Shown here piece after piece: positions 21,737 to 61,000 of a stretch of 64,000 nucleotides of DNA. Position numbers and translations under genes: made by a program. Numbering within the stretch: position 1 is the stretch's first letter; each line of letters opens with the position of its first letter. A model generated the notes under the pieces. It was not told where the DNA came from, ran no database searches, and was given only the letters and a program-made list of their open reading frames with translations. This DNA is from Parcubacteria group bacterium GW2011_GWA2_43_13 (GTDB taxonomy: Bacteria > Patescibacteriota > Patescibacteriia > UBA9629 > GWA2-43-13): assembly GCA_000999025.1 (NCBI GenBank), contig LCFM01000001.1:1198-65197 (forward strand), read 5' to 3'.

Positions 21737-21764
21737 GTAGAGACGGGGTTAACCCCGTCTCTAC
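21737..21764. repeat. Family A palindromic repeat, canonical copy
   Basis: GTAGAGACGGGGTTAACCCCGTCTCTAC, a perfect 12-4-12 palindrome. Confidence 0.85.
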
Positions 21765-31156: not shown

Positions 31157-31270
31157 CCTCTCCCTCCCCCCTCCTTGGTAAGGAGGAGGAATAACGCACG
31201 GCCTCTCTCCTTTACAAAGGAAAAAGATAACGACGACCTCTCTCCTTGACAAGGAGTGGGTAGGTGAGGT
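31157..31270. repeat. Cluster of about 3 family B hairpin units
   Basis: CCCTCCTTGGTAAGGAGGAGG .. CTCTCCTTTACAAAGGAAAAAG .. CTCTCCTTGACAAGGAGTGGG. Confidence 0.7.
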
Positions 31271-49749: not shown

Positions 49750-49860
49750 GTAAGACCTCCCCTCTCCTTGGTAAGGAGGGGAGACGCGTCGGTTCCCTCT
49801 CTTTTAAGAAGGAGAGGGTTAGGGTGAGGTATCCCCTCCTTTTTAAGGAGGGGGGAGAAG
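49750..49860. repeat. Cluster of about 3 family B hairpin units upstream of smpB
   Basis: CTCTCCTTGGTAAGGAGGGGAG .. CTCTCTTTTAAGAAGGAGAGGG .. CCCCTCCTTTTTAAGGAGGGGGG. Confidence 0.7.
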
Positions 49861-49876: not shown

Positions 49877-50329
49877 ATGCCAACTATTGCAACAAACAAA
49901 GAAGCTCTGCAGAATTACGAAGTTATGGAAACATCTGAAGCAGGGATTGTGCTCACCGGGCCGGAAGTGCGGAGTGTTAAGCGCGGGTCAATCCAATTAA
50001 AAGGGAGCTATTGCTCCTTGGACGGCAAAGGAGAATTATTTTTAAAAAACGCCCACATCTCCGCGTATAAGCCAGCGGCATCGGTTCAGCGTGATTACAC
50101 ACCAACGCACCGCAGAAAACTTTTACTTTCAAAACAGGAACTGCGATCGCTGATTGGAAAACTTCAAGCAAAAGGAATCACACTGATCCCCTTGCGCGTC
50201 TACACCACGCGCGGGCTTATTAAAGTGGAGCTTGGGTTGTGCAGAGGCAGAAAGACATACGACAAACGCGAACAAAAAAAGAAAAAAGATATCGAACGCG
50301 ATGTCAAAAGAGAGTTGCGGAAAAAATAA
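49877..50329 (+). CDS. smpB: SsrA-binding protein
   Basis: ..NKEALQNYEVMETSEAGIVLTGPEV..G.EL.L...HI..Y.. with a basic C-terminal tail. Confidence 0.85.
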   Translation: MPTIATNKEALQNYEVMETSEAGIVLTGPEVRSVKRGSIQLKGSYCSLDGKGELFLKNAHISAYKPAASVQRDYTPTHRRKLLLSKQELRSLIGKLQAKGITLIPLRVYTTRGLIKVELGLCRGRKTYDKREQKKKKDIERDVKRELRKK

Positions 50330-51102: not shown

Positions 51103-51657
51103 TTAGTCACTTTTTGCTTGTAAAATCATAAACAATTTCGGGCCTTGTGATTGAAGTGGCGTATCAATAGTTGCGTCCTGTGAAAGCATATCGCTAAAGA
51201 TATGAAACACCTCCTCTGCTCGGTCCCGATGCGCCTTCTCTCGACCGCGCATCACAATTTCAGCTTTCACCTTATGTCCTTTTTCAAAAAATTTCAAGGC
51301 CTGCTTCTTGCGAACCTCTAAATCATGCTCTTTCATCCCCACAGAAAGCCGCACTCCCTTTACTTCAACTGCCTTTACTTTTGCCTTTTGCTTTTGCCGT
51401 TTTTTCTGCTCTTGATAGTTAAAACTGCCCCAATTCTCAAATTTGCATACCGGTGGCACTGCAACAGGCGATACTTCTATCAAATCATATCCCCGCTCTT
51501 CTGCCAATGACAAGGCATCTCGGGTTTTCATAACCCCAAGATTATTTCCCGCTTCATCAACAACCCGTACTTCTGGAACGCGAATACGATCATTCACTCG
51601 AAATAATGGCTGTTGTATCTGGCGTCTTTTATAATGACTAACTCGACGTATTCTCAT
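51103..51657 (-). CDS. infC: Translation initiation factor IF-3
   Basis: ..RVPEVRVVDEAGNNLGVMKTRDALSLAEERGYDLIEV.. and C-terminal domain. Confidence 0.85.
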   Translation of the reverse strand: MRIRRVSHYKRRQIQQPLFRVNDRIRVPEVRVVDEAGNNLGVMKTRDALSLAEERGYDLIEVSPVAVPPVCKFENWGSFNYQEQKKRQKQKAKVKAVEVKGVRLSVGMKEHDLEVRKKQALKFFEKGHKVKAEIVMRGREKAHRDRAEEVFHIFSDMLSQDATIDTPLQSQGPKLFMILQAKSD

Positions 51658-51953
51658 CTCGATTCTTGATCATTTGAAGTAGGAATATCCTCCCACCCTA
51701 TTGATCGTAAAAAATGGTGTAATTGATGTTTTAATTGCCGTCTCCCTTTACTAGTTTTAAGAAATTGCTCCCGAACAACCGCATCAATTTTCAATATATA
51801 CACTTCGTAGTATACCAATTTCAATGGTCTTCGCCCCTTCGTTGATATAACCATGCCTTGGTTGTGAACATGGACACGATTTTTGAGATCTGATGAACTC
51901 CCAATATAGAAACCATTATCCTTTGTGCTATGAAGAATATACACATAATACAT
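51654..51953 (-). CDS. Stand-alone GIY-YIG domain protein
   Basis: YYVYILHSTKDNGFYIGSSSDLKNRVHVHN matches the GIY..YIG..R..H.N pattern; 4-nt overlap with infC. Confidence 0.7.
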   Translation of the reverse strand: MYYVYILHSTKDNGFYIGSSSDLKNRVHVHNQGMVISTKGRRPLKLVYYEVYILKIDAVVREQFLKTSKGRRQLKHQLHHFLRSIGWEDIPTSNDQESR

Positions 51954-52690
51954 AGCATTCTATCTATTGGCACGGGGACCTGGCACTCCGCTTCGCTTCG
52001 GCCTGGGCATGGCACTTCTCCCTTCTTCAGGTGCTCACACTATAATAACCTACTTGTGGCTTGCCGCGGTCTTGGCCCCGTCACTTCGTTCGCTCATGCT
52101 CACTTCGGACAGGGCACGACACTCGCATATATTATTCAAACTTCAACGCTCTATCAAATGCTTCTGGCTTGCCACGACCGAGCCATCGAAAATGGCGAGT
52201 GTCGTGGAGATGGCGGGAATTTCACCCGCGTCTAAACAGTGTTTCATTTTTGGTGTGCCATCAGAGAGCATCTTTAAAATTTTGCGGAAAATGGTTAAAG
52301 ATGTTCAAAAAAACATTTCCGCTATCACCGATCAAGGGGTCAAAAGCGCCACGATGACAAGCACTTTCCAATCACCATGGTTGGCGCCAGTGATTCGCTA
52401 TGGTGACTCGCGAAGCTGACGGCATGTCACTGTTTAGGCGACAGCTGGTGCGAATGAAAAACCAGCAAAAGCTGATTTCACGCGCGCGACAAGATTCTTG
52501 GCATTTGTCGGCTTGGTTAAGAGATTAACGAGCGATCAACCACGCTCGAATGGCCAAAATATGAAACAATCTGCTTATCGAATAATACCATCCCCATGTT
52601 TGTGGGCTATTCGTAAAGATTCGTGATGTATTCGTGGCGAAGTATAATAAAAAACAACCCTGCCGTCAAGCCCATCGAGCAAAAAATAGG

Positions 52691-53323
52691 TTATTCCAAA
52701 CTAAACTCAACTAACTCTTTTTTTATCTTTTTCTCACTCACCTCAACCCCGGGCATAAAAACCACCTTTTCATCATATTTGACATCATCAAAATACGCTA
52801 ATTGTATTCTAAACAATTTACTGTTAAATTGTGTGCCAAATATGGATTCAGCTTGTTGTACAATCTCCTGCAACGAATGATAACCTTTCATAATAAAACG
52901 CAAATCAACATAATCCTTCCACTTTGCCCGCCGACCTAAAGCGTATGCTTTCATCGCGGCCAACGTGACTAAATTTGGCATTTTGATTATACCCTCAAAA
53001 TCTTCCGTGTATGCTATATCAAATGGATAATGATAAAACGTAACTTTTACATCCCCCACTAAAAAGGTTAATTCTCCTGATTTATCAACAATAACGTGGC
53101 TTATTTTTACAACTCGTTCAATTTTTTTCTTAAGAGCGGATGTCCTAAACTCCTTGTTTGAAAATAAATCAAAATCAATTGATTCTCTATGACCAATGTG
53201 TAAAGCGATAGCAGTACCTCCAACCAACCCATATTCTTTCCTCATGTACTTTAACAACGGCAATAATGCTACCTGTTCGTCTGTGAGTATTTCCTTATGC
53301 ATATTTATTAAAATACAAGGCAA
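52691..53323 (-). CDS. AbiEii/AbiGii-family nucleotidyltransferase (DUF1814-like), module 2
   Basis: GLVGGTAIALHIGHRESIDFDLF corresponds to the GGTAL...R.S.D(I/L)D(F/L) hallmark of AbiEii NTase toxins. Confidence 0.65.
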   Translation of the reverse strand: MPCILINMHKEILTDEQVALLPLLKYMRKEYGLVGGTAIALHIGHRESIDFDLFSNKEFRTSALKKKIERVVKISHVIVDKSGELTFLVGDVKVTFYHYPFDIAYTEDFEGIIKMPNLVTLAAMKAYALGRRAKWKDYVDLRFIMKGYHSLQEIVQQAESIFGTQFNSKLFRIQLAYFDDVKYDEKVVFMPGVEVSEKKIKKELVEFSLE

Positions 53324-53570
53324 AGTAATGCTTTACTTCCGCCCGATAATTTTGCCGACCCATTTTTGAGGGTTTGGATTTTTCACGAAAAATTTTAGCA
53401 ACTTTTTTGATGCCTAAAATCTTAATTAATGTCTGCACGTCATCCCAATCCCCATAATTCAGAGTTGCCTCCACAATGGACTCTGCCTTTAGTTTATCGT
53501 AATCCTTTACCCACCAAATAAGATGTTTTCTTTCTTTAATAAAATCATGAATGGTCATAGTCAAATACAT
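53295..53570 (-). CDS. Small partner protein of NTase module 2 (candidate antitoxin)
   Basis: 91 aa; overlaps both flanking genes; weak similarity to the 54176..54406 product (W..., .DWDD/.YWDT..L..IL motifs). Confidence 0.4.
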   Translation of the reverse strand: MYLTMTIHDFIKERKHLIWWVKDYDKLKAESIVEATLNYGDWDDVQTLIKILGIKKVAKIFREKSKPSKMGRQNYRAEVKHYFALYFNKYA

Positions 53571-54258
53571 CCTTTTCTAATTTTTCTGCTTCTTTCAAAA
53601 AAAATTTCTTCCAATGATTATGATTAAACGGTTGTACCATGCGCGGATAATCTTTCAATTTTTGCGCCTGAATAAACTGTGTCCCCAATTGAAGCGGGTC
53701 AATATGCCAGTCGAATTTTATCTTTGCTTTCTTCGTAATATCTGAAAGTGAAAATGGATACGTCTGCAAAATAAAAAAAAGATCAATAAAATCCCTGGCC
53801 GTTAAGCGCTGGTATATGGTAAAAAGTTTATTCACCGCTAAATCTATAATACTCTCAACCCGTATCCCCTCCTGCTGGAGAGGATTTTCAATCGGAGAAA
53901 ACGGGAAATAGGTGAATTCCATTTTGAGTATTTCACTGTTTTTAAGCGTCAAAAAATAGATATGACGGTTAAAGGTATGCTGAAAATCAATGTCAGTGAT
54001 TGCAAGTTCTTTTCGTAAAGATGTCAAAAAAACATGGATCATCTCAGGGTCAACTTCTTCTTGTGAGAACAAATCAAGATCTTCGGAAAACCGATGATGC
54101 AAATAAAACCCTGCCAAAGCGGTACCGCCGGTTAAAACAAACTGGTCATTTATATCTTTAGCTTGAGATATTTTTTTAATGACTTTTCTTTGGGATGCGG
54201 TAAGAATTTTCTTTGTCATGGATAAAAAGGTTAAGAAACTCCCGCCGGTGAGGATCAA
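53545..54258 (-). CDS. AbiEii/AbiGii-family nucleotidyltransferase (DUF1814-like), module 1
   Basis: LTGGTALAGFYLHHRFSEDLDLF. The likely true start is MTKKILT at 54219. Confidence 0.65.
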   Translation of the reverse strand: MILTGGSFLTFLSMTKKILTASQRKVIKKISQAKDINDQFVLTGGTALAGFYLHHRFSEDLDLFSQEEVDPEMIHVFLTSLRKELAITDIDFQHTFNRHIYFLTLKNSEILKMEFTYFPFSPIENPLQQEGIRVESIIDLAVNKLFTIYQRLTARDFIDLFFILQTYPFSLSDITKKAKIKFDWHIDPLQLGTQFIQAQKLKDYPRMVQPFNHNHWKKFFLKEAEKLEKDVFDYDHS

Positions 54259-54406
54259 TGTTCAGTGTATCCCAGTACTTGCGAAGTTCTTGCATAGAGA
54301 GCTTTTCTTTGCCAATGCCAAAATTAATTAGCTGTTCAAGTCGCCATTTAGCATACTGTTTTTTACCTTTTTTCAGCGCTGTTGTATCTGTAGACCAATT
54401 GTACAT
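54176..54406 (-). CDS. Small partner protein of NTase module 1 (candidate antitoxin)
   Basis: 76 aa, first gene of the apparent four-gene operon; overlaps the NTase gene. Confidence 0.4.
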   Translation of the reverse strand: MYNWSTDTTALKKGKKQYAKWRLEQLINFGIGKEKLSMQELRKYWDTLNIDPHRREFLNLFIHDKENSYRIPKKSH

Positions 54407-54420
54407 AAAATGTATTCTAA

Positions 54421-54452
54421 ACCACCCCTATCCCCTCCTTTTAGAGGAAGGA
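54421..54452. repeat. Family B hairpin in the 5' UTR of the NTase operon
   Basis: CCCCTATCCCCTCCTTTTAGAGGAAGG. Confidence 0.6.
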
Positions 54453-54463
54453 TATTTACCTGT

Positions 54464-54493
54464 ATTATAGCATAGAATTGAAATTTTAGACAA
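54464..54493 (-). promoter_or_regulatory. Sigma70-type promoter for the small-protein/NTase operon
   Basis: Minus strand: TTGTCT, 18 nt, TGcTATAAT (extended -10), about 55 nt upstream of the ATG at 54406. Confidence 0.55.
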
Positions 54494-54762: not shown

Positions 54763-54852
54763 ACCTCACCCTAACCCTCTCCTTATAAAGGAGAGGGAAA
54801 CGAATCCCCCCTTAAGAGGGGAACGACGCGCCTCCTTCCTTGAGGAAGGTGG
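54763..54852. repeat. Cluster of about 3 family B hairpin units in the long leader of the GC-rich island
   Basis: CCCTCTCCTTATAAAGGAGAGGG .. CCCCCCTTAAGAGGGG .. CCTCCTTCCTTGAGGAAGGTGG. Confidence 0.7.
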
Positions 54853-55140
54853 CACCCGCAGGGTGACGGAAGGTGTTACCACTAATTGACTTGCCCAGTC
54901 CTCGTGACTGGGGCTCACTTCATATCTGATAATACACAACCGATATTCGTATCATTTGCATGAATTTGTATATTTGCGTCGCATTTGTCAGATAAAAAGT
55001 GGGACTTTCGTGAGCGTGGGTATGTTGCCTGCGCTTAATGCGTCGTTCATCGACAACGAGTTGAGGTTACGTTGTCCCCTACCTCAACTACACTTCACAA
55101 CGCATCACGCAAGTGATGCGCTCTCGTAAGGAGCTTCAAA

Positions 55141-56262
55141 ATGCGTCAAAAACTGAGTTTTCAACTCTACCTCATCAAGACCGGTGACGAGAGGAAAGAC
55201 AAAGGAAACGGAACTGCGGAAGCGTTGCTCGTCGAAATCACGGACCTTGACCAAACGGGTCCGTATGAGTTGTACTGCGAGAATGGGATCATGGCCGAAG
55301 GCGACCGCGCAGCGATCCAGAAATTTCTCGAGGCGGAGGTTGCCAAGCAACCGACGGCCGAAGAAGAGCTTCTTGCCGAGACGCAAGACGAGCTCGCCAC
55401 AAGGACGAGCGAGCTACGTGCTGTCCAGGGGACGGCACGGCAGATCGCCGGCGAGCGCGACGTGGCGGTTGCCCAGCGGGATGAATCCCGCCTCGGGCAC
55501 GATCTGATCGTGAACAAGCTCGCCGAAGTCGCGAAAGCGAATGGCGAGCTCCAGGAGACGTTCGAGCAAACGTACGAGAAGCTCACCGACGCTCAGGCCG
55601 ACGTGTTGTCGGCGAAAAGCGAGCTCAGGACCGCGAACGATGCCTTGGCTTGGATGCGTGCGCGGATGACAAACTTTCTTGGCATGATCGGCCTCACGGC
55701 CAATCTCATCAACGACTCCAACGCAGATCATAACGTAACAGCAAGGATCTACGAAATCAAACAACATACGGCCTGGTACTGCGGTGTCACTGGTCTCGTC
55801 GTCGGCGGGATCATCGTCGGCGCCATCTGGCTCTTCACGACGGCGTTCGACGGCTGTGCGGGGAAACCCAACAACCAGCCGCCGACACTGTCGGTTACGC
55901 CGACAGCGACGACGGTCGAGATCGGGAAGGTCGCGACGGTGTCCTACGATGTCACCGACCCTGACGACAAGAAGCATGACGTCGAGGTTGTGACCAGTCC
56001 CAAAATCGGGAAGGTCACAGTCGACCAGGAATCGAAGACTCTGACGTACACCTCCGATGGCATCAGCCTCGGGGATGATACGTTCCAGGTCGTCGCAAAA
56101 GACAAAGAGTCCACCTCACCCGCTATTGACGTCAACGTTACCGTCAACGCCGCTCCGGCGCCCACCCCACCCGCCACGACTGGCGGCGGTGGGACGACAC
56201 CGCTGGCCGACGACTGGGATAAGGTAACGATCCCCGACGTGTCGGGGATCAAAGGACGCTAA
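55141..56262 (+). CDS. High-GC island gene 1: coiled-coil / single-TM / cadherin-like (bacterial Ig-like) domain protein
   Basis: AAGGAG 8 nt upstream of ATG. N-terminal coiled coil, TM (GLVVGGIIVGAIWLF), then VTDPDDKKHDVEV..TYTSDGISLGDDTFQVVAKDKESTSPAIDVNVTVN (cadherin/VCBS-like). About 60% GC against ~40% background. Confidence 0.7.
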   Translation: MRQKLSFQLYLIKTGDERKDKGNGTAEALLVEITDLDQTGPYELYCENGIMAEGDRAAIQKFLEAEVAKQPTAEEELLAETQDELATRTSELRAVQGTARQIAGERDVAVAQRDESRLGHDLIVNKLAEVAKANGELQETFEQTYEKLTDAQADVLSAKSELRTANDALAWMRARMTNFLGMIGLTANLINDSNADHNVTARIYEIKQHTAWYCGVTGLVVGGIIVGAIWLFTTAFDGCAGKPNNQPPTLSVTPTATTVEIGKVATVSYDVTDPDDKKHDVEVVTSPKIGKVTVDQESKTLTYTSDGISLGDDTFQVVAKDKESTSPAIDVNVTVNAAPAPTPPATTGGGGTTPLADDWDKVTIPDVSGIKGR

Positions 56263-56328
56263 CAACCAAGGCAATGGCGTGGGGGAGGAGAAATACAACC
56301 CCACGCACTCTCTTAAGGAGTTCGACGA

Positions 56329-57315
56329 ATGAAACGAATTTTCGTTCCGCTCTTCGTGTTTGGAATCGTGAGTGCCTCCTATGGTCAAGTGGACCCGGAG
56401 GCACGGTCGCGCACGGTGGTGTTGAAACAAGAGCTCGCAAAGCAAGGTGGCGCTCTGAACAACCTCGATACGCGGCTCACCGCCGTCGAGGGAAAACCGG
56501 CGCCGAAGACGCCAAGTTCAGGGCACGACGTTACAGCGCGACAAATGGCGTTGTGGCTCGCAGAACGAGCGTTTGTGCGGGATGGCTATACACCCGAAGC
56601 CGCACAGGCCGAAGCCGCCCGTGTGATCACGGGGGGACTCGGGAAAAACGCTCGTCTCCGCGAGTTGCGCGCGTATGCCACGGCATACGCACTCCGCGAC
56701 CCATCGAAACTCATCGGCGACGTGGAGCGCAACGTAAACACAAAAATCGTCGGGTTGAAAACCGACGTCGACGCGCTTGCCGGACGCGTCGGAAAGAACG
56801 AAACGACCCTGACGGAACAGGGCACCAGCCTCGGCGTCGTCGAGACAGACTTGAAAGCCCTGAAATACGGGCTCAAGGCCACGATCAACGATGCGATCAC
56901 GGCGAAGTGCGTCGGCTATTACACGAAAGCCGACGCCGACGCCGCGGTCACGAAGGCCATCTTCGAAGCAGTTACAAAGCTACAGACAGATGGTCTCATG
57001 ACCAGTGCCAAGGAGGTTCGTGAGTTCGTCGGCGACGCTCTCGCGCCATACGCGAAGGGCGCCGAGCTCGCGGTAGTGCTCAAGCAAACCCTCGCGCTCA
57101 CGAGCGAACTGATCGGATTCGTCCCCCACGTCAAGGTAGACGTAAGGGGATCCGACGATCACTACCGCGACGCGCGAATCGGCGAGCTGACCGCCATCGA
57201 AAACGCCCTCAAGGCGGCGATGGCACCGGACAAGCCGGCGGAGGCGACGACGCCTTCCGCCGCGGACGATCACGAACACGAAGCCAACCTCGAATTCGAC
57301 TTCATCACCCAGTAG
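56329..57315 (+). CDS. High-GC island gene 2: secreted coiled-coil protein
   Basis: AAGGAG RBS; signal peptide MKRIFVPLFVFGIVSASYG; long alpha-helical/coiled-coil body. Confidence 0.65.
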   Translation: MKRIFVPLFVFGIVSASYGQVDPEARSRTVVLKQELAKQGGALNNLDTRLTAVEGKPAPKTPSSGHDVTARQMALWLAERAFVRDGYTPEAAQAEAARVITGGLGKNARLRELRAYATAYALRDPSKLIGDVERNVNTKIVGLKTDVDALAGRVGKNETTLTEQGTSLGVVETDLKALKYGLKATINDAITAKCVGYYTKADADAAVTKAIFEAVTKLQTDGLMTSAKEVREFVGDALAPYAKGAELAVVLKQTLALTSELIGFVPHVKVDVRGSDDHYRDARIGELTAIENALKAAMAPDKPAEATTPSAADDHEHEANLEFDFITQ

Positions 57316-57336
57316 AGACCTGGGTGTATGCTACAC

Positions 57337-57397
57337 ATCGGATTGGAATGGAATCATACACAACGCTGTATTGAGACCACCAATCCGATTTTTTTAT
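57337..57397 (+). terminator. Terminator-like hairpin after island gene 2
   Basis: ATCGGATTGG...CCAATCCGAT followed by TTTTTTT. Confidence 0.5.
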
Positions 57398-57410
57398 TTA
57401 CGAAAAACAT

Positions 57411-57440
57411 CCCCCTACCCTCTCCTTGGCAAGGAGAGAA
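57411..57440. repeat. Family B hairpin unit at the right edge of the GC island
   Basis: CCCCCTACCCTCTCCTTGGCAAGGAGAGAA. Confidence 0.65.
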
Positions 57441-57460
57441 AAATTCTAAAATGTCTCTCC

Positions 57461-58045: not shown

Positions 58046-61000
58046 TTACGCGGCTTTGGAAAGATGTTTTGCAAGTTCTTGTTCAACAGTATCGAACACT
58101 AATTTGCTTTTTGGATCCAGATGCTCCACTATACCGGCAAGAACGCGCCAGCTATGCCATGACTGCTGATTTAATATATTCTTATTAAGCATATCTTGGG
58201 CAGAAAGCCCTAAAATATTTCTCACCCCGATTGCCGCATTTTTCCGCAATTTCGTGTCATCAGACAGTAAATTATTTATTAAACTTTGCGCGTTACCTTT
58301 ATATTTTCCCAACGCATCAACTGAATCGATTGACGTATTCATATACTCAACCAACTCGGACTGTTTCACCGCTCCAACAACCTCTTGAAATGAGGCATCA
58401 TCATGAATAATAGTATGAGCAGAATCAAGCCACTCCGGGGTAATAATTTTTTTAGCATCGTAGGTGAAAAGTTCTGCAATGGCTTTACCGTCATCATCGG
58501 AGACGGGGCGACGCCCCGTCTCTACAACACCAGCAATGGCACTGCTGGTTTCGTGATGCGCATTTGGGATGACATCAACAGTGCCGATGTCTTTATCAGT
58601 TCCTTTGATAGGATGATCTTTGAGCCATTCGGTATAATCGTGCAGTTCGTGACCACGCGCGCCGTTGGGCAGAACGTGACGGATTGAAATAATTTTTTCA
58701 TTGCCCTTGGGGAGTTGCTCTAATACTACATCAGGTGTTTGCGGGTTGCTTGCGCCAAATTTGACGGCAATAATCTCTGGTGGTTGAGACCCCACCCCAC
58801 CCTCCCCTTGTAAAGGGGAGGGAGACGACAATTCACCATGTGAAAAACGGGCGATGTCGTGCGGATCAGTAACAGGTCGCACCCATGCGTGATGATCATG
58901 CATTGTAATATGGTTCCATGGTCCGCCTTCATCTTTAGAAAGATGCTCAAGTGTTTTTGAAATAGTTCCAACATCAGCATCTTGATGAATTGCATGGAAT
59001 GAAGTTAAAATATTTGCTTCTTCTGCGCCGATACTTCCTGATACCGGACCTGGGATATCGCCAGTTGCGCCAATGCTTTCGCGCAGGGCTTCTAATGCTT
59101 CAGACCTCACCCCGCCCTCTCCTTGGAAAGGAGAGGTGGACGATAACTCCCCTTCACCCTCTCTGACCTCAAGAAGGAGGACATGCGCGTCGGTGTTGGG
59201 TAATTGCAATTCATGGGTATGGCCATCAACAATCATGCCTTGCGGAGAAGGGACCGCAAGCGGTTCAAACCTCACCCTCCCCTCTCCTTTTAAAGGGGAG
59301 GGTAACGACGACGACACACCCTCTGTCCTCCTCTCAAGAGGGGGGATCGTCGCCCCCCTTCCTTGAGGAAGGGTTGGGGAAGGTGTTGCGTCATGCGATT
59401 TCGAAAAATCATATTCATGGGAAATATCAGACGGACGCTCAAACACAGCGCCTGCAGTATGGGTTTCAAACGGAGCATACGCGCCACGCGTTGGGTCATA
59501 TGTATATTCACCAACCGCCCATGTTCCTTGCGGTGTTTTATGCAACCAATACGCAGGATTCTCGCCAGCTCCGGCAACGCCGGTATCCAGTACACGCACC
59601 TCATGACCTGCATTATCAACATACCCATAATCGCGCGCAATCAAATGCGCCAGATTGCCACGATCTCCTGTTCCATAACGCTGTGAAAAATATGAAAACG
59701 CATCATGGTTTTGCCCGAGTTGACGATGTAACACATGCTCAACACCCTCCCCCCTGCCAACCACAGCGCTCATTGGAAGATGCCCTGCATCAGGCAAAGG
59801 AACAGGGCCATGAGGCGTGGCTCCACCACCATCTGCCGCATGCGCGACTTCGCGCAAATGAGCAACCTCACCCAACAAAAACGCTCCTATAATCGCTCCG
59901 CCAACTTTATACACTAACCTACGATTTCTATTTCTAATATCTAACACATTATTACCTTGAGCATCATACATTCCGCTTCGCGTCCGTTCTGCTTGCCGAA
60001 ACTCGGTATATTCAGCGTGAAGTGATCCGCCTGTCTGTTGAATAGTTTCAAATTTTTGAGGAATGCTTTTTTCACCTGTTCTCAATCCATCCGGCCTCAC
60101 GCGCGGAGGTTGGGCATTCGTGCTCCACAATGGTCGCTCCCATTCTACCAAAAGTTTTAAATGCATTACTTTAGTATACATTTTTTTAAACCGTTCATAT
60201 TGATGGCTAAATTCATGATGATTTTTTAAATTTTCAATATATGGCTGGGTTTCTGCAAGTACTTTCAGCATTGGCTGCAATTGGGCATCAATATTCGCAA
60301 CGTCGGAAATGGTTAATTCGTTCTCTATTTTTTGCAATGTCTTTTCGTATTCCCCCAACTTACCCGATTCAAGCGCTTTGAGCGATTGCTCAACACCTGT
60401 CTCTGGCGCATTCCTGCCTGTGCGCAATGCAAACCCCCACCTGCCATGAGGCCCGCCCCATGGCCGACCAATACCACCTGAATCAGCTAATGCTCCTCCC
60501 ATTTTCCATCCGCTGTACGCGCCTACTGCCGCCGCCCCCGCTACCCCAAAAGTGCGCAAAAACGATAATCCCAACCCAACGCCTAATGCTGTAGCGCCTG
60601 CAAACGCTTTATCACGTGGCGAAGTGTTATGCCATAAAATTCCGCGGTTGCGATCTTGCTTTGTAAATCCAAGCGGCCGAGTAGTGCGCATGCCATCCGC
60701 AACTGTGCCAAAAAATTCATGATACCCATGTTGCGCGCCCTGACTGCGCTGATCCATTGCCTCTTGATACCGTGTTTTTGCCTCATCATCCATTGAATAA
60801 TACAATGCAAATCGCATGGCGCGGGATTGAATATCTTCTGCAGATAATCGTTGCGCCTCTTCTAATGCGTTATTTTCAGCAGTCAGCGCGCCTAAAAACC
60901 GATTATAATATTCATCAACTCCTAACGGGTCTTGAATCCCCTGCTCTGCTCTGATACGATTGCGGTTTGTGTTTTCAACATAATTGGCAATAGAAAATGA

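Follow-up and report, generated by a model that had tools for sequence, protein, structure and literature searches.

Two separable pairs of AbiEii-type nucleotidyltransferases and very small helical proteins, probably stacked toxin-antitoxin modules, in a Parcubacteria genome

Introduction

Nucleotidyltransferase (NTase) toxins of the AbiE and MenAT systems are actively studied as tRNA-modifying growth regulators and phage-defence modules. In MenAT1 of Mycobacterium tuberculosis (Rv0078B/Rv0078A), the gene for a small helical antitoxin without a helix-turn-helix (HTH) domain precedes the gene for the DUF1814 toxin, and there is no autoregulation (PMC11375011). MenA1 binds to this toxin, which is thereby made to phosphorylate itself on the conserved Thr/Ser of its (S/T)xDxD motif (PMC11375011). 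Repositioning of this Ser/Thr, leading to auto-phosphorylation of the toxin, is described for MenA1/MenT1, MenA3/MenT3, and AbiEi/AbiEii (PMC11375011; bioRxiv 10.64898/2026.01.19.700257). Here, we analyzed a stretch of 64,000 nucleotides from Parcubacteria group bacterium GW2011_GWA2_43_13 (contig LCFM01000001.1, positions 1,198 to 65,197), hereafter called the window. It encodes two AbiEii-type NTases, NT1 and NT2, each preceded by a gene for a small protein, S1 and S2, respectively (Table 1).

The S1-NT1 and S2-NT2 pairs resemble MenAT1 in that the gene for a small helical partner lies before a DUF1814 NTase gene, and NT1 and NT2 keep the Ser as well as the catalytic Asp and Lys. Unlike MenAT1, the partners show no sequence or fold similarity to MenA1, and profile searches from NT1 and NT2 do not reach the MenT structures. 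By analogy, MenAT1 appears to be the functionally closest system, although the partners are not detectably homologous to MenA1. The AbiE systems of Streptococcus agalactiae and Lactococcus and the COG5340-DUF1814 pairs, including MenAT3, are likewise bicistronic, the NTase gene following that of its partner, and their NTase motifs I to IV and phospho-acceptor are conserved in NT1 and NT2. In contrast to those systems, the partner here is 62-87 aa long and all-helical, with neither a winged HTH nor a COG5340 C-terminal domain. The systems in the window are not AbiE in the strict sense, since a test for AbiEi, the partner that defines AbiE, found none. A third likeness is to pairs in Bacteroidales, in which a gene for an HTH_3-DUF6922 protein lies upstream of, and overlaps, an AbiEii gene. 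The proteins from the candidate phyla radiation (CPR) differ from these in lacking the N-terminal XRE-type HTH; they consist of the bare domain and a conserved C-terminal tail.

It is likely that the locus represents two independent, stacked modules of the AbiE/MenAT type, functioning in toxin-antitoxin (TA) control or abortive infection, with minimal antitoxins that have no HTH. The advance is incremental: the locus extends a known kind of system and is not a new one. In Patescibacteria, AbiEii-type NTases are regularly partnered by two families of very small helical proteins (~150 loci), and rules that detect COG5340/AbiEi together with DUF1814, in the style of PADLOC, would score these CPR NTases as orphans. 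The idea of a minimal antitoxin, known from MenA1, would be extended beyond mycobacteria, and proteins of only 62-87 aa would become available for the study of how DUF1814 toxins are switched off.

The Four Genes and Their Promoter

Four tightly packed genes on the minus strand, in the order S1, NT1, S2, and NT2, had been pointed out in an earlier note on this DNA, and their open reading frames (ORFs) were confirmed. Neighbouring genes overlap by 43 nt (S1/NT1), 14 nt (NT1/S2), and 8 nt (S2/NT2). These overlaps would fit one transcription unit with translational coupling. A relative that carries the same four genes at 88% nucleotide identity (L169) served as the reference for synonymous divergence (dS) and for the ratio of nonsynonymous to synonymous substitution (dN/dS). 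The dN/dS is 0.24 for S1, 0.26 for NT1, 0.010 for S2, and 0.28 for NT2. Therefore, all four are real genes under purifying selection.

The extended -10 promoter described earlier is present upstream of S1, although the promoter scan by itself is not above chance (6 sites found versus 6.9 expected). Its conservation was seen in another close relative, L088, in which the -10 region and its surroundings are base-for-base the same though the flanking intergenic DNA has diverged. The promoter stretch AAATTTCAATTCTATGCTATAATACA.GTAAATAT is kept in L088, where it lies immediately 5' of S2. The GC content at 53-54 kb of the window is 35%, while it is ~43% elsewhere.

Nucleotidyltransferases NT1 and NT2

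The assignment of the two large proteins to AbiEii/DUF1814 was borne out by Pfam. NT1 matches AbiEii (PF08843) with 72.0 bits (E = 9e-20) and NT2 with 44.9 bits (E = 1.8e-11), both above the curated gathering cut-off of 22.5 bits. Many PADLOC AbiEii models match both proteins (E = 1e-20 for NT1), and PF08843 is precomputed for all of the best 120 among 2792 NT1 homologues. The two NTases share only 29% identity.

Ten residues are invariant in each family: G31, G32, T33, R43, S45, D47, D49, K131, D143, and D146 in NT1 (37 aligned sequences), and G28, G29, T30, R39, S41, D43, D45, K118, D130, and D133 in NT2 (25 aligned sequences). They include, of the pol-beta NTase pattern hG[G/S]...DhD, motif I (GG) and motif II (R-x-S-x-D-x-D), which reads R43-F-S45-E-D47-L-D49 in NT1 and R39-E-S41-I-D43-F-D45 in NT2. 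The family-specific motif III, a Lys in hydrophobic surroundings with an Arg seven residues further on, corresponds to K131...R138 and K118...R125. The candidate Asp of motif IV is D143/D146 in NT1 and D130/D133 in NT2, and its equivalence to D192 of AbiEii is assigned by position only. Judged by their sequences, NT1 and NT2 are AbiEii/DUF1814 NTases that keep all catalytic motifs.

In S. agalactiae AbiEii, the residues G49/G50, R63, T65, D67, D69, K173, R180, and D192 have been mutated, and mutation of G49/G50, R63, D67, D69, K173, R180, or D192 abolishes toxicity and GTP binding (PMC3985639). The invariant motif residues of NT1 and NT2 fall on these mutated positions. The phospho-acceptor is T39 in MenT1, S78 in MenT3, and T65 in AbiEii (PMC11375011; bioRxiv 10.64898/2026.01.19.700257). 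S45 of NT1 and S41 of NT2, both invariant in the alignments, occupy this position, two residues before the first catalytic Asp.

The nearest solved relative of NT1 is PDB 4o8s/4ok0 (E = 1.6e-8 over ~190 residues). The two proteins are ~25-30% identical, and the GxT...RFSEDLDF and K...ARD..DL motifs align. The solved protein was deposited as "Putative", and we take it to be JHP933 of Helicobacter pylori, a DUF1814 NTase. We know of no small partner of this protein. The profile search of PDB sequences with NT2 found no relative, 4o8s/4ok0 included.

Small Partner Proteins S1 and S2

S1 is a basic (pI 9.8), all-helical protein of 76 aa. Its 261 homologues all come from CPR and are typically 62-69 aa long; among 1.84 billion representative proteins, the family forms 239 clusters at 50% identity. 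Scans of Pfam, NCBIfam, PADLOC, and PHROGs assigned no family to S1. The AlphaFold2 (AF2) model has three core helices (residues 15-29, 38-44, and 52-62) and a short fourth one, with a mean confidence (pLDDT) of 75. DUF6922 was matched by none of 32 S1 members and by one of 40 divergent members (E = 0.012).

This single faint match, the only one in the S1 family, comes from a divergent S1-like ORF of 73 aa (FWDY...KFGD...) found in L154, L155, and L158-L160. It lies ~35 nt downstream of NT2 on the opposite strand, convergent to S2-NT2, and has no NTase of its own. In another protein, P0365, an S1 N-terminus runs into the C-terminal half of an NTase, and the catalytic motif is missing.

S2 is also basic (pI 9.6) and all-helical, and it is 87 aa long. 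Of its 739 homologues, the 120 listed come from many CPR lineages and show 77-92% identity. At the DNA level, relatives are only ~68-74% identical. Recent horizontal transfer was considered as the cause of the high identity of S2 and was ruled out by this difference between DNA (~68-74%) and protein (80-92%). The high protein identity with diverged DNA is therefore due to selection. The AF2 model of S2 (pLDDT 90.6) has helices at 25-35, 38-48, 50-60, and 73-86 and a conserved loop at 61-72, which contains the invariant P-S-x-x-G-R-Q-N-Y (residues 63-71). A loop directed to the active site of the toxin is described for AbiEi and MenA3 (bioRxiv 10.64898/2026.01.19.700257). It is speculation, drawn from this analogy, that residues 63-71 of S2 could be a candidate for such a loop.

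The small proteins had been thought to be similar to each other. This was not supported: BLASTP between them gave E = 14, and hhalign of family profiles (shallow, divergent, and broadened; 342 and 181 sequences) gave a probability of 0.2-0.4%, aligning only an eight-residue stretch (LEQLINFG / VEATLNYG). S1 and S2 were therefore rejected as paralogues. They have in common a short motif, W..D...L ... hE..hN[FY]G, and a three-helix core, the first helix of which ends in hE..hN[FY]G. Based on these shared features, which partly come from models, a remote kinship is possible.

Known structures and families gave no counterpart. With either AF2 model as the query against PDB, and with that of S2 also against BFVD, Foldseek gave no E below 1, and sequence-profile searches of PDB with S1 and S2 gave no match. 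No chain of 8AN5, the MenA1 structure, is among the PDB sequence or Foldseek matches of either protein. The AbiEi models in Pfam, NCBIfam, and PADLOC match neither S1 nor S2, and the AF2 models contain no strands. This agrees with the earlier statement that the partners, here 76-87 aa and all-helical, are not AbiEi. These searches gave no sign that phages or mobile elements carry the small genes: tblastn of S2 in the INPHARED phages found no match, and relatives of S1 or S2 were not found in IMG/VR.

DUF6922 and Antitoxin-Like Fusions

S2 matches DUF6922 (Pfam PF21956) weakly, with 19.5 bits (E = 6.6e-4) against a cut-off of 27 bits. Scans of S2 against Pfam, NCBIfam, PADLOC, and PHROGs gave no other match. 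Such a match below the cut-off is seen in 20 of 21 members of the S2 family (best E = 2.6e-4). The hidden Markov model (HMM) of the S2 family picks up more divergent ORFs, with E values of 1e-6 to 1e-19. On DUF6922 these ORFs reach 41-69 bits, and NT2-like genes lie downstream of them in CPR loci. Canonical DUF6922 ORFs in CPR loci (E = 1e-10 to 1e-19) also precede NT2-like genes. Since the S2-family HMM reaches bona fide DUF6922 ORFs, S2 appears to be a divergent DUF6922 member, by transitive evidence.

A canonical DUF6922 query matched three Bacteroidales plasmids only. In all three, DUF6922 lies in a protein of 171-174 aa annotated as "helix-turn-helix transcriptional regulator", with an N-terminal HTH_3 (XRE-type) domain followed by a C-terminal DUF6922 (74-75 bits). 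The gene overlaps the start of an AbiEii/AbiGii gene in the Phocaeicola and Bacteroides plasmids (Table 1). This is the classic architecture of an antitoxin, a DNA-binding domain joined to a toxin-binding domain. Because such fusions lie upstream of AbiEii genes, DUF6922 is most likely the module that faces the NTase, binding or neutralising it, and the CPR proteins would be this module alone. On the plasmid from B. fragilis (NZ_CP054002.1), another AbiEii gene, larger than the first, lies 2 kb upstream.

No paper on DUF6922 was found in a literature search. DUF6922 is catalogued in Pfam but unstudied, and the S1 family is uncatalogued. The fusions give DUF6922 a testable function, as it is likely a portable NTase-neutralising domain. 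The proposal of a novel antitoxin partner thus holds in part: S1 has no Pfam family, while S2 belongs with DUF6922, and MenA1 is a precedent for a small helical partner (PMC11375011).

Cognate Pairing and Proposed Function

Whether small ORFs are conserved beside such NTases elsewhere was surveyed in 80 genome loci collected through S1 and 80 metagenome loci collected through S2, in which ORFs were classed with HMMs of the window proteins. They are. Among the 77 informative S1-collected loci, an intact NT1-type gene is downstream in 61, a fragmented one in 9, and none in 7. Among the 73 informative S2-collected loci, the corresponding numbers for NT2-type genes are 64, 1, and 8. Across these ~150 CPR loci, pairing is strictly subfamily-specific: S1 is found with NT1-type and S2 with NT2-type NTases. 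Pairwise identities of small proteins and NTases co-vary (r = 0.51-0.58). The bicistronic order with overlap, the partner first and the NTase next, is seen in the window and ~125 other loci. Seen from the NTases, all loci together contain 141 intact NTase ORFs, and a small gene directly precedes 138 of them; two of the other three lie at contig edges, and at the third there is a gap of 319 nt. The S1 gene overlaps the NTase start in all four loci reached through NT1 homologues.

Decay of these pairs is asymmetric. Ten intact small genes are accompanied by fragmented NTases, and 15 of the ~150 loci have orphan small genes, only one of which has an NTase remnant nearby. That the small gene outlasts the NTase, and not the reverse, is what a toxin and its antitoxin predict. 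In one locus, an ORF of 341 aa on the opposite strand (L073:3765-4790, minus strand) lies between an intact S1 and a C-terminal NT1 remnant; an insertion seems to have broken the NTase gene while S1 stayed.

Together with the HTH_3-DUF6922 fusions, we read these pairs as toxin-antitoxin modules. In this model, both modules would be co-transcribed from the single promoter. NT1 and NT2 would be toxins that add nucleotides to the 3'-CCA ends of tRNA and thereby block aminoacylation, by analogy with MenT1, MenT3, MenT4, and AbiEii. The small, basic, all-helical protein whose gene precedes each NTase gene and is translationally coupled to it would be the cognate antitoxin. Without a DNA-binding domain, this protein would take the place of the winged-helix AbiEi/COG5340 antitoxin of ~200-300 aa. 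S2 would be a minimal antitoxin whose autoregulatory HTH was lost or never present, and S1 would belong to a second, apparently unrelated partner family specific to NT1-type NTases. Neutralisation would most likely occur by direct binding, either through sequestration or through repositioning of S45 in NT1 and S41 in NT2 for auto-phosphorylation. Toxicity, the tRNA target, the antitoxin role, and phosphorylation are all proposed from the likeness to the described systems.

Several points weigh against this interpretation. The mechanism of neutralisation by S1 and S2 is taken from analogy alone. The two proteins resemble neither MenA1, AbiEi, nor any solved or viral structure, both are basic (pI 9.6-9.8), and, as they have no HTH domain, it is not obvious how they would autoregulate. 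Conservation is higher in S2 than in NT2 (79% versus 59% identity to the window proteins), and the dN/dS of 0.010 for S2 was obtained at a dS of 0.48. Conservation beyond that of the toxin is unusual, the opposite of what is generally seen for antitoxins, and may point to a further constraint, for example an interaction with a conserved cellular partner. P0256, a protein of 282 aa encoded on one JGI contig of 1356 bp, has an S1 domain at residues 3-64 followed by a complete NT1-type NTase. It is the only S1-NT1 fusion among the best 120 of 2792 NT1 homologues and may be either a sequencing frameshift error or a rare real fusion; a real fusion fits poorly with a labile antitoxin. Finally, the sampling favours the small gene, and only ~18 NTase-anchored or secondary modules bear on the reverse dependence.

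Two other roles for the small proteins account for some of these points. One is that S1 and S2, instead of being passive antitoxins, are highly constrained subunits with a regulatory or sensing role, which link AbiEii-type NTases to a conserved component of the cell or of a phage, such as a tRNA, tmRNA, or the ribosome. We regard this as rather unlikely. If true, it would account for the conservation of S2 far beyond the toxin, and it would represent a new way of controlling DUF1814 toxins without an HTH, widespread in CPR; the recurrent stacking of S1-NT1 before DUF6922-NT pairs, described below, could then mean cross-talk between modules.

The other, which seems to us improbable to a similar degree, is that the small proteins are positive accessory subunits of a non-toxic NTase, that is, adaptors that recruit substrates, bind RNA, or sense a trigger. 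The extreme conservation of S2 above that of NT2 (dN/dS 0.01; 77-92% protein identity versus ~68% DNA identity) is in favour of such a subunit. The basic nature of S1 and S2 is compatible with nucleic-acid binding, and the one natural fusion (P0256), the missing DNA-binding domain, and the lack of likeness to known antitoxins point the same way. However, the small gene comes first and overlaps the NTase start, which fits the order of antitoxin and toxin. The NTase decays while the small gene survives, never the reverse, whereas an adaptor is expected to disappear together with the NTase. In Bacteroidales, the homologous DUF6922 domain occurs in fusion with an XRE-type HTH, and every DUF1814 NTase that has an upstream partner and has been characterised is a toxin (PMC11375011; bioRxiv 10.64898/2026.01.19.700257; PMC3985639). 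These observations favour the antitoxin role over the accessory one.

Separate Histories of the Two Modules

In L088 (Ga0209542_10050084), infC, rpmI, and rplT are near-identical to those in the window and the tmRNA gene is 97% identical. The same promoter is followed by S2-NT2 within ~12 nt, and S1-NT1 is absent. In the window, ~880 bp (54451 to ~53570) lie between the promoter and S2; this segment begins with a hairpin and carries S1 and NT1. The hairpin, which belongs to a genome-wide family, marks the left edge of the S1-NT1 insertion and is missing from the leader in L088. The same promoter drives S2-NT2 alone in L088; therefore, the array is composed of two separable modules and is not a duplication. 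The tandem duplication proposed in the earlier note is also contradicted by the unrelated S1 and S2 and by the low identity between NT1 and NT2. S1-NT1 would have come to lie between the promoter and S2-NT2 either by insertion here or by loss in the relative.

The divergence from L169 differs between the modules. The dS is 0.08 for NT1 (counterpart at 5188-5862 in L169), 0.28 for S1, and 0.48-0.49 for S2 and NT2. The value for NT1 is about six-fold below that for S2 and NT2, and the modules therefore have separate histories. It suggests that the S1-NT1 segment was recently exchanged or acquired between the lineages of the window and L169.

Single-pair loci prevail; 57 of the 61 loci with an intact S1-NT1 pair are of this kind, as are most of those with S2-NT2. 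Nevertheless, stacking recurs. In L050, L083, L084, and L175, a DUF6922-NT2-like pair comes after S1-NT1, and the reverse order is seen in L018. Several S2 loci have a second DUF6922-NTase pair. The second pairs in stacked loci belong to other DUF6922/NTase subfamilies. The simplest reading is that TA or defence modules cluster, although S1-NT1 may have a preference for landing 5' of DUF6922 pairs. An example of clustering of TA modules is a HepT-like/NTP_transf_2 (HEPN-MNT) pair (L172:4147-4834, minus strand) located ~1 kb downstream of an S1-NT1 module on a Gracilibacteria contig.

The earlier note had also suggested a heteromeric system. If both NTases and both small proteins acted together as one obligate system, for instance with one pair controlling the other, the tandem itself would be the functional unit. 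Overlap and co-transcription of the four genes, their preservation in L169, and the recurrence of the S1-NT1/DUF6922-NT2-like order in unrelated CPR genomes, above random placement in ~1-Mb genomes, are consistent with it. We nevertheless consider it very unlikely. Each pair stands alone in most of the ~125 intact loci with subfamily-specific pairing, as in the 57 single-pair S1-NT1 loci, and L088 runs S2-NT2 by itself from the same promoter. The second pairs come from different subfamilies, as island-like clustering and not a fixed complex would give, and the roughly six-fold lower dS of NT1 also disagrees with a single unit.

In type VII HEPN-MNT systems, an NTase of the pol-beta fold serves as the antitoxin. 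Such a reversal of roles as in HepT/MntA, with the NTase nucleotidylylating a small toxic protein, has this general precedent and the HepT-like/NTP_transf_2 pair adjoining one S1-NT1 module (L172) in its favour but is hardly credible here, since the 15 orphan small genes in ~150 loci would be forbidden for a toxin, the NTases fall in the AbiEii/DUF1814 clade and not in MNT (PF01909), and the gene order is opposite to that of MntA-HepT.

Genomic Neighbourhood

On one side of the operon are the housekeeping genes infC, rpmI, rplT, and smpB, and on the other side is a block of high GC content (Table 1).

Table 1. Positions of the genes and other features discussed in the text. Positions are those of the window unless a locus is named.
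Feature	Position	Strand	Description
S1	54176-54406	minus	ORF of 76 aa
NT1	53545-54219	minus	224 aa from ATG; a TTG start would extend it to 54258
S2	53295-53558	minus	87 aa from MTIHDF; 91 aa from ATG further upstream at 53570
NT2	52691-53302	minus	203 aa from ATG; 210 aa from TTG
Promoter	54464-54493	minus	-35 TTGTCT, 18-nt spacer, extended -10 TGcTATAAT; consensus scan; precedes S1
REP-like hairpin	54424-54446		CCTTCCTCT-AAA-AGGAGGGG + ATAGGGGTGG; in the 5' leader of S1; read from the sequence
tmRNA gene (ssrA)	52202-52595	minus	Rfam RF00023, 66 bits, full length; directly downstream of NT2
smpB	49877-50329	plus	
ORF	55141-56262	plus	373 aa; borderline Big_9 Ig-like domain
ORF	56329-57315	plus	328 aa; no Pfam family
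HTH_3-DUF6922 + AbiEii	L167:2710-3893		Phocaeicola vulgatus plasmid NZ_CP096966.1
HTH_3-DUF6922 + AbiEii	L168:2701-4145		Bacteroides fragilis plasmid NZ_CP054002.1

The transfer-messenger RNA (tmRNA) gene was detected by Rfam and not by ARAGORN. It has a promoter-like site of its own at 52669-52641. A functional tie between NT2 and the adjacent tmRNA was considered and rejected. Besides the window, only L088 and L169, both close relatives, have the tmRNA gene next to S2-NT2, and none of the 18 other S2-NT2 loci does; this is therefore a lineage-specific synteny. Defence or addiction remnants had been noted next to the operon. The GIY-YIG ORF among them (51654-51953) is real, whereas the supposed RelE/RHH remnant is the tmRNA gene (RF00023). 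The GIY-YIG gene is missing from L088, which has other small ORFs between the tmRNA gene and infC. This suggests that the GIY-YIG gene is also variable at the site 3' of ssrA.

The block at ~55000-57400 has a GC content of 58-59%, compared with ~43% for the genome, and contains the two plus-strand ORFs of 373 and 328 aa. Similar hairpin elements flank it on either side (54769-54800 and 57412-57443). The block is probably not an assembly chimera, because L169 has comparable genes, for a Big_9 protein of 466 aa and a protein of 361 aa, on the same side of the operon.

Two families of intergenic hairpins resembling repetitive extragenic palindromes (REP-like) are spread genome-wide in the window. 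The first, GTAGAGACGGGGTTAACCCCGTCTCTAC, has ~9 copies, for example, at 21740, 28803, 29957, 39024, and 40336. The second, CCCTCTCCTT-N4-AAGGAGAGGG, is often followed by TTAGGGTGAGG and has 12 or more copies, which are sometimes clustered; they include those at 31167, 48748, 49761-49854, 54775-54852, 57419, and 58800-59374. The hairpin at 54424-54446, where the S1-NT1 insertion has its left junction, is a copy of this second family.

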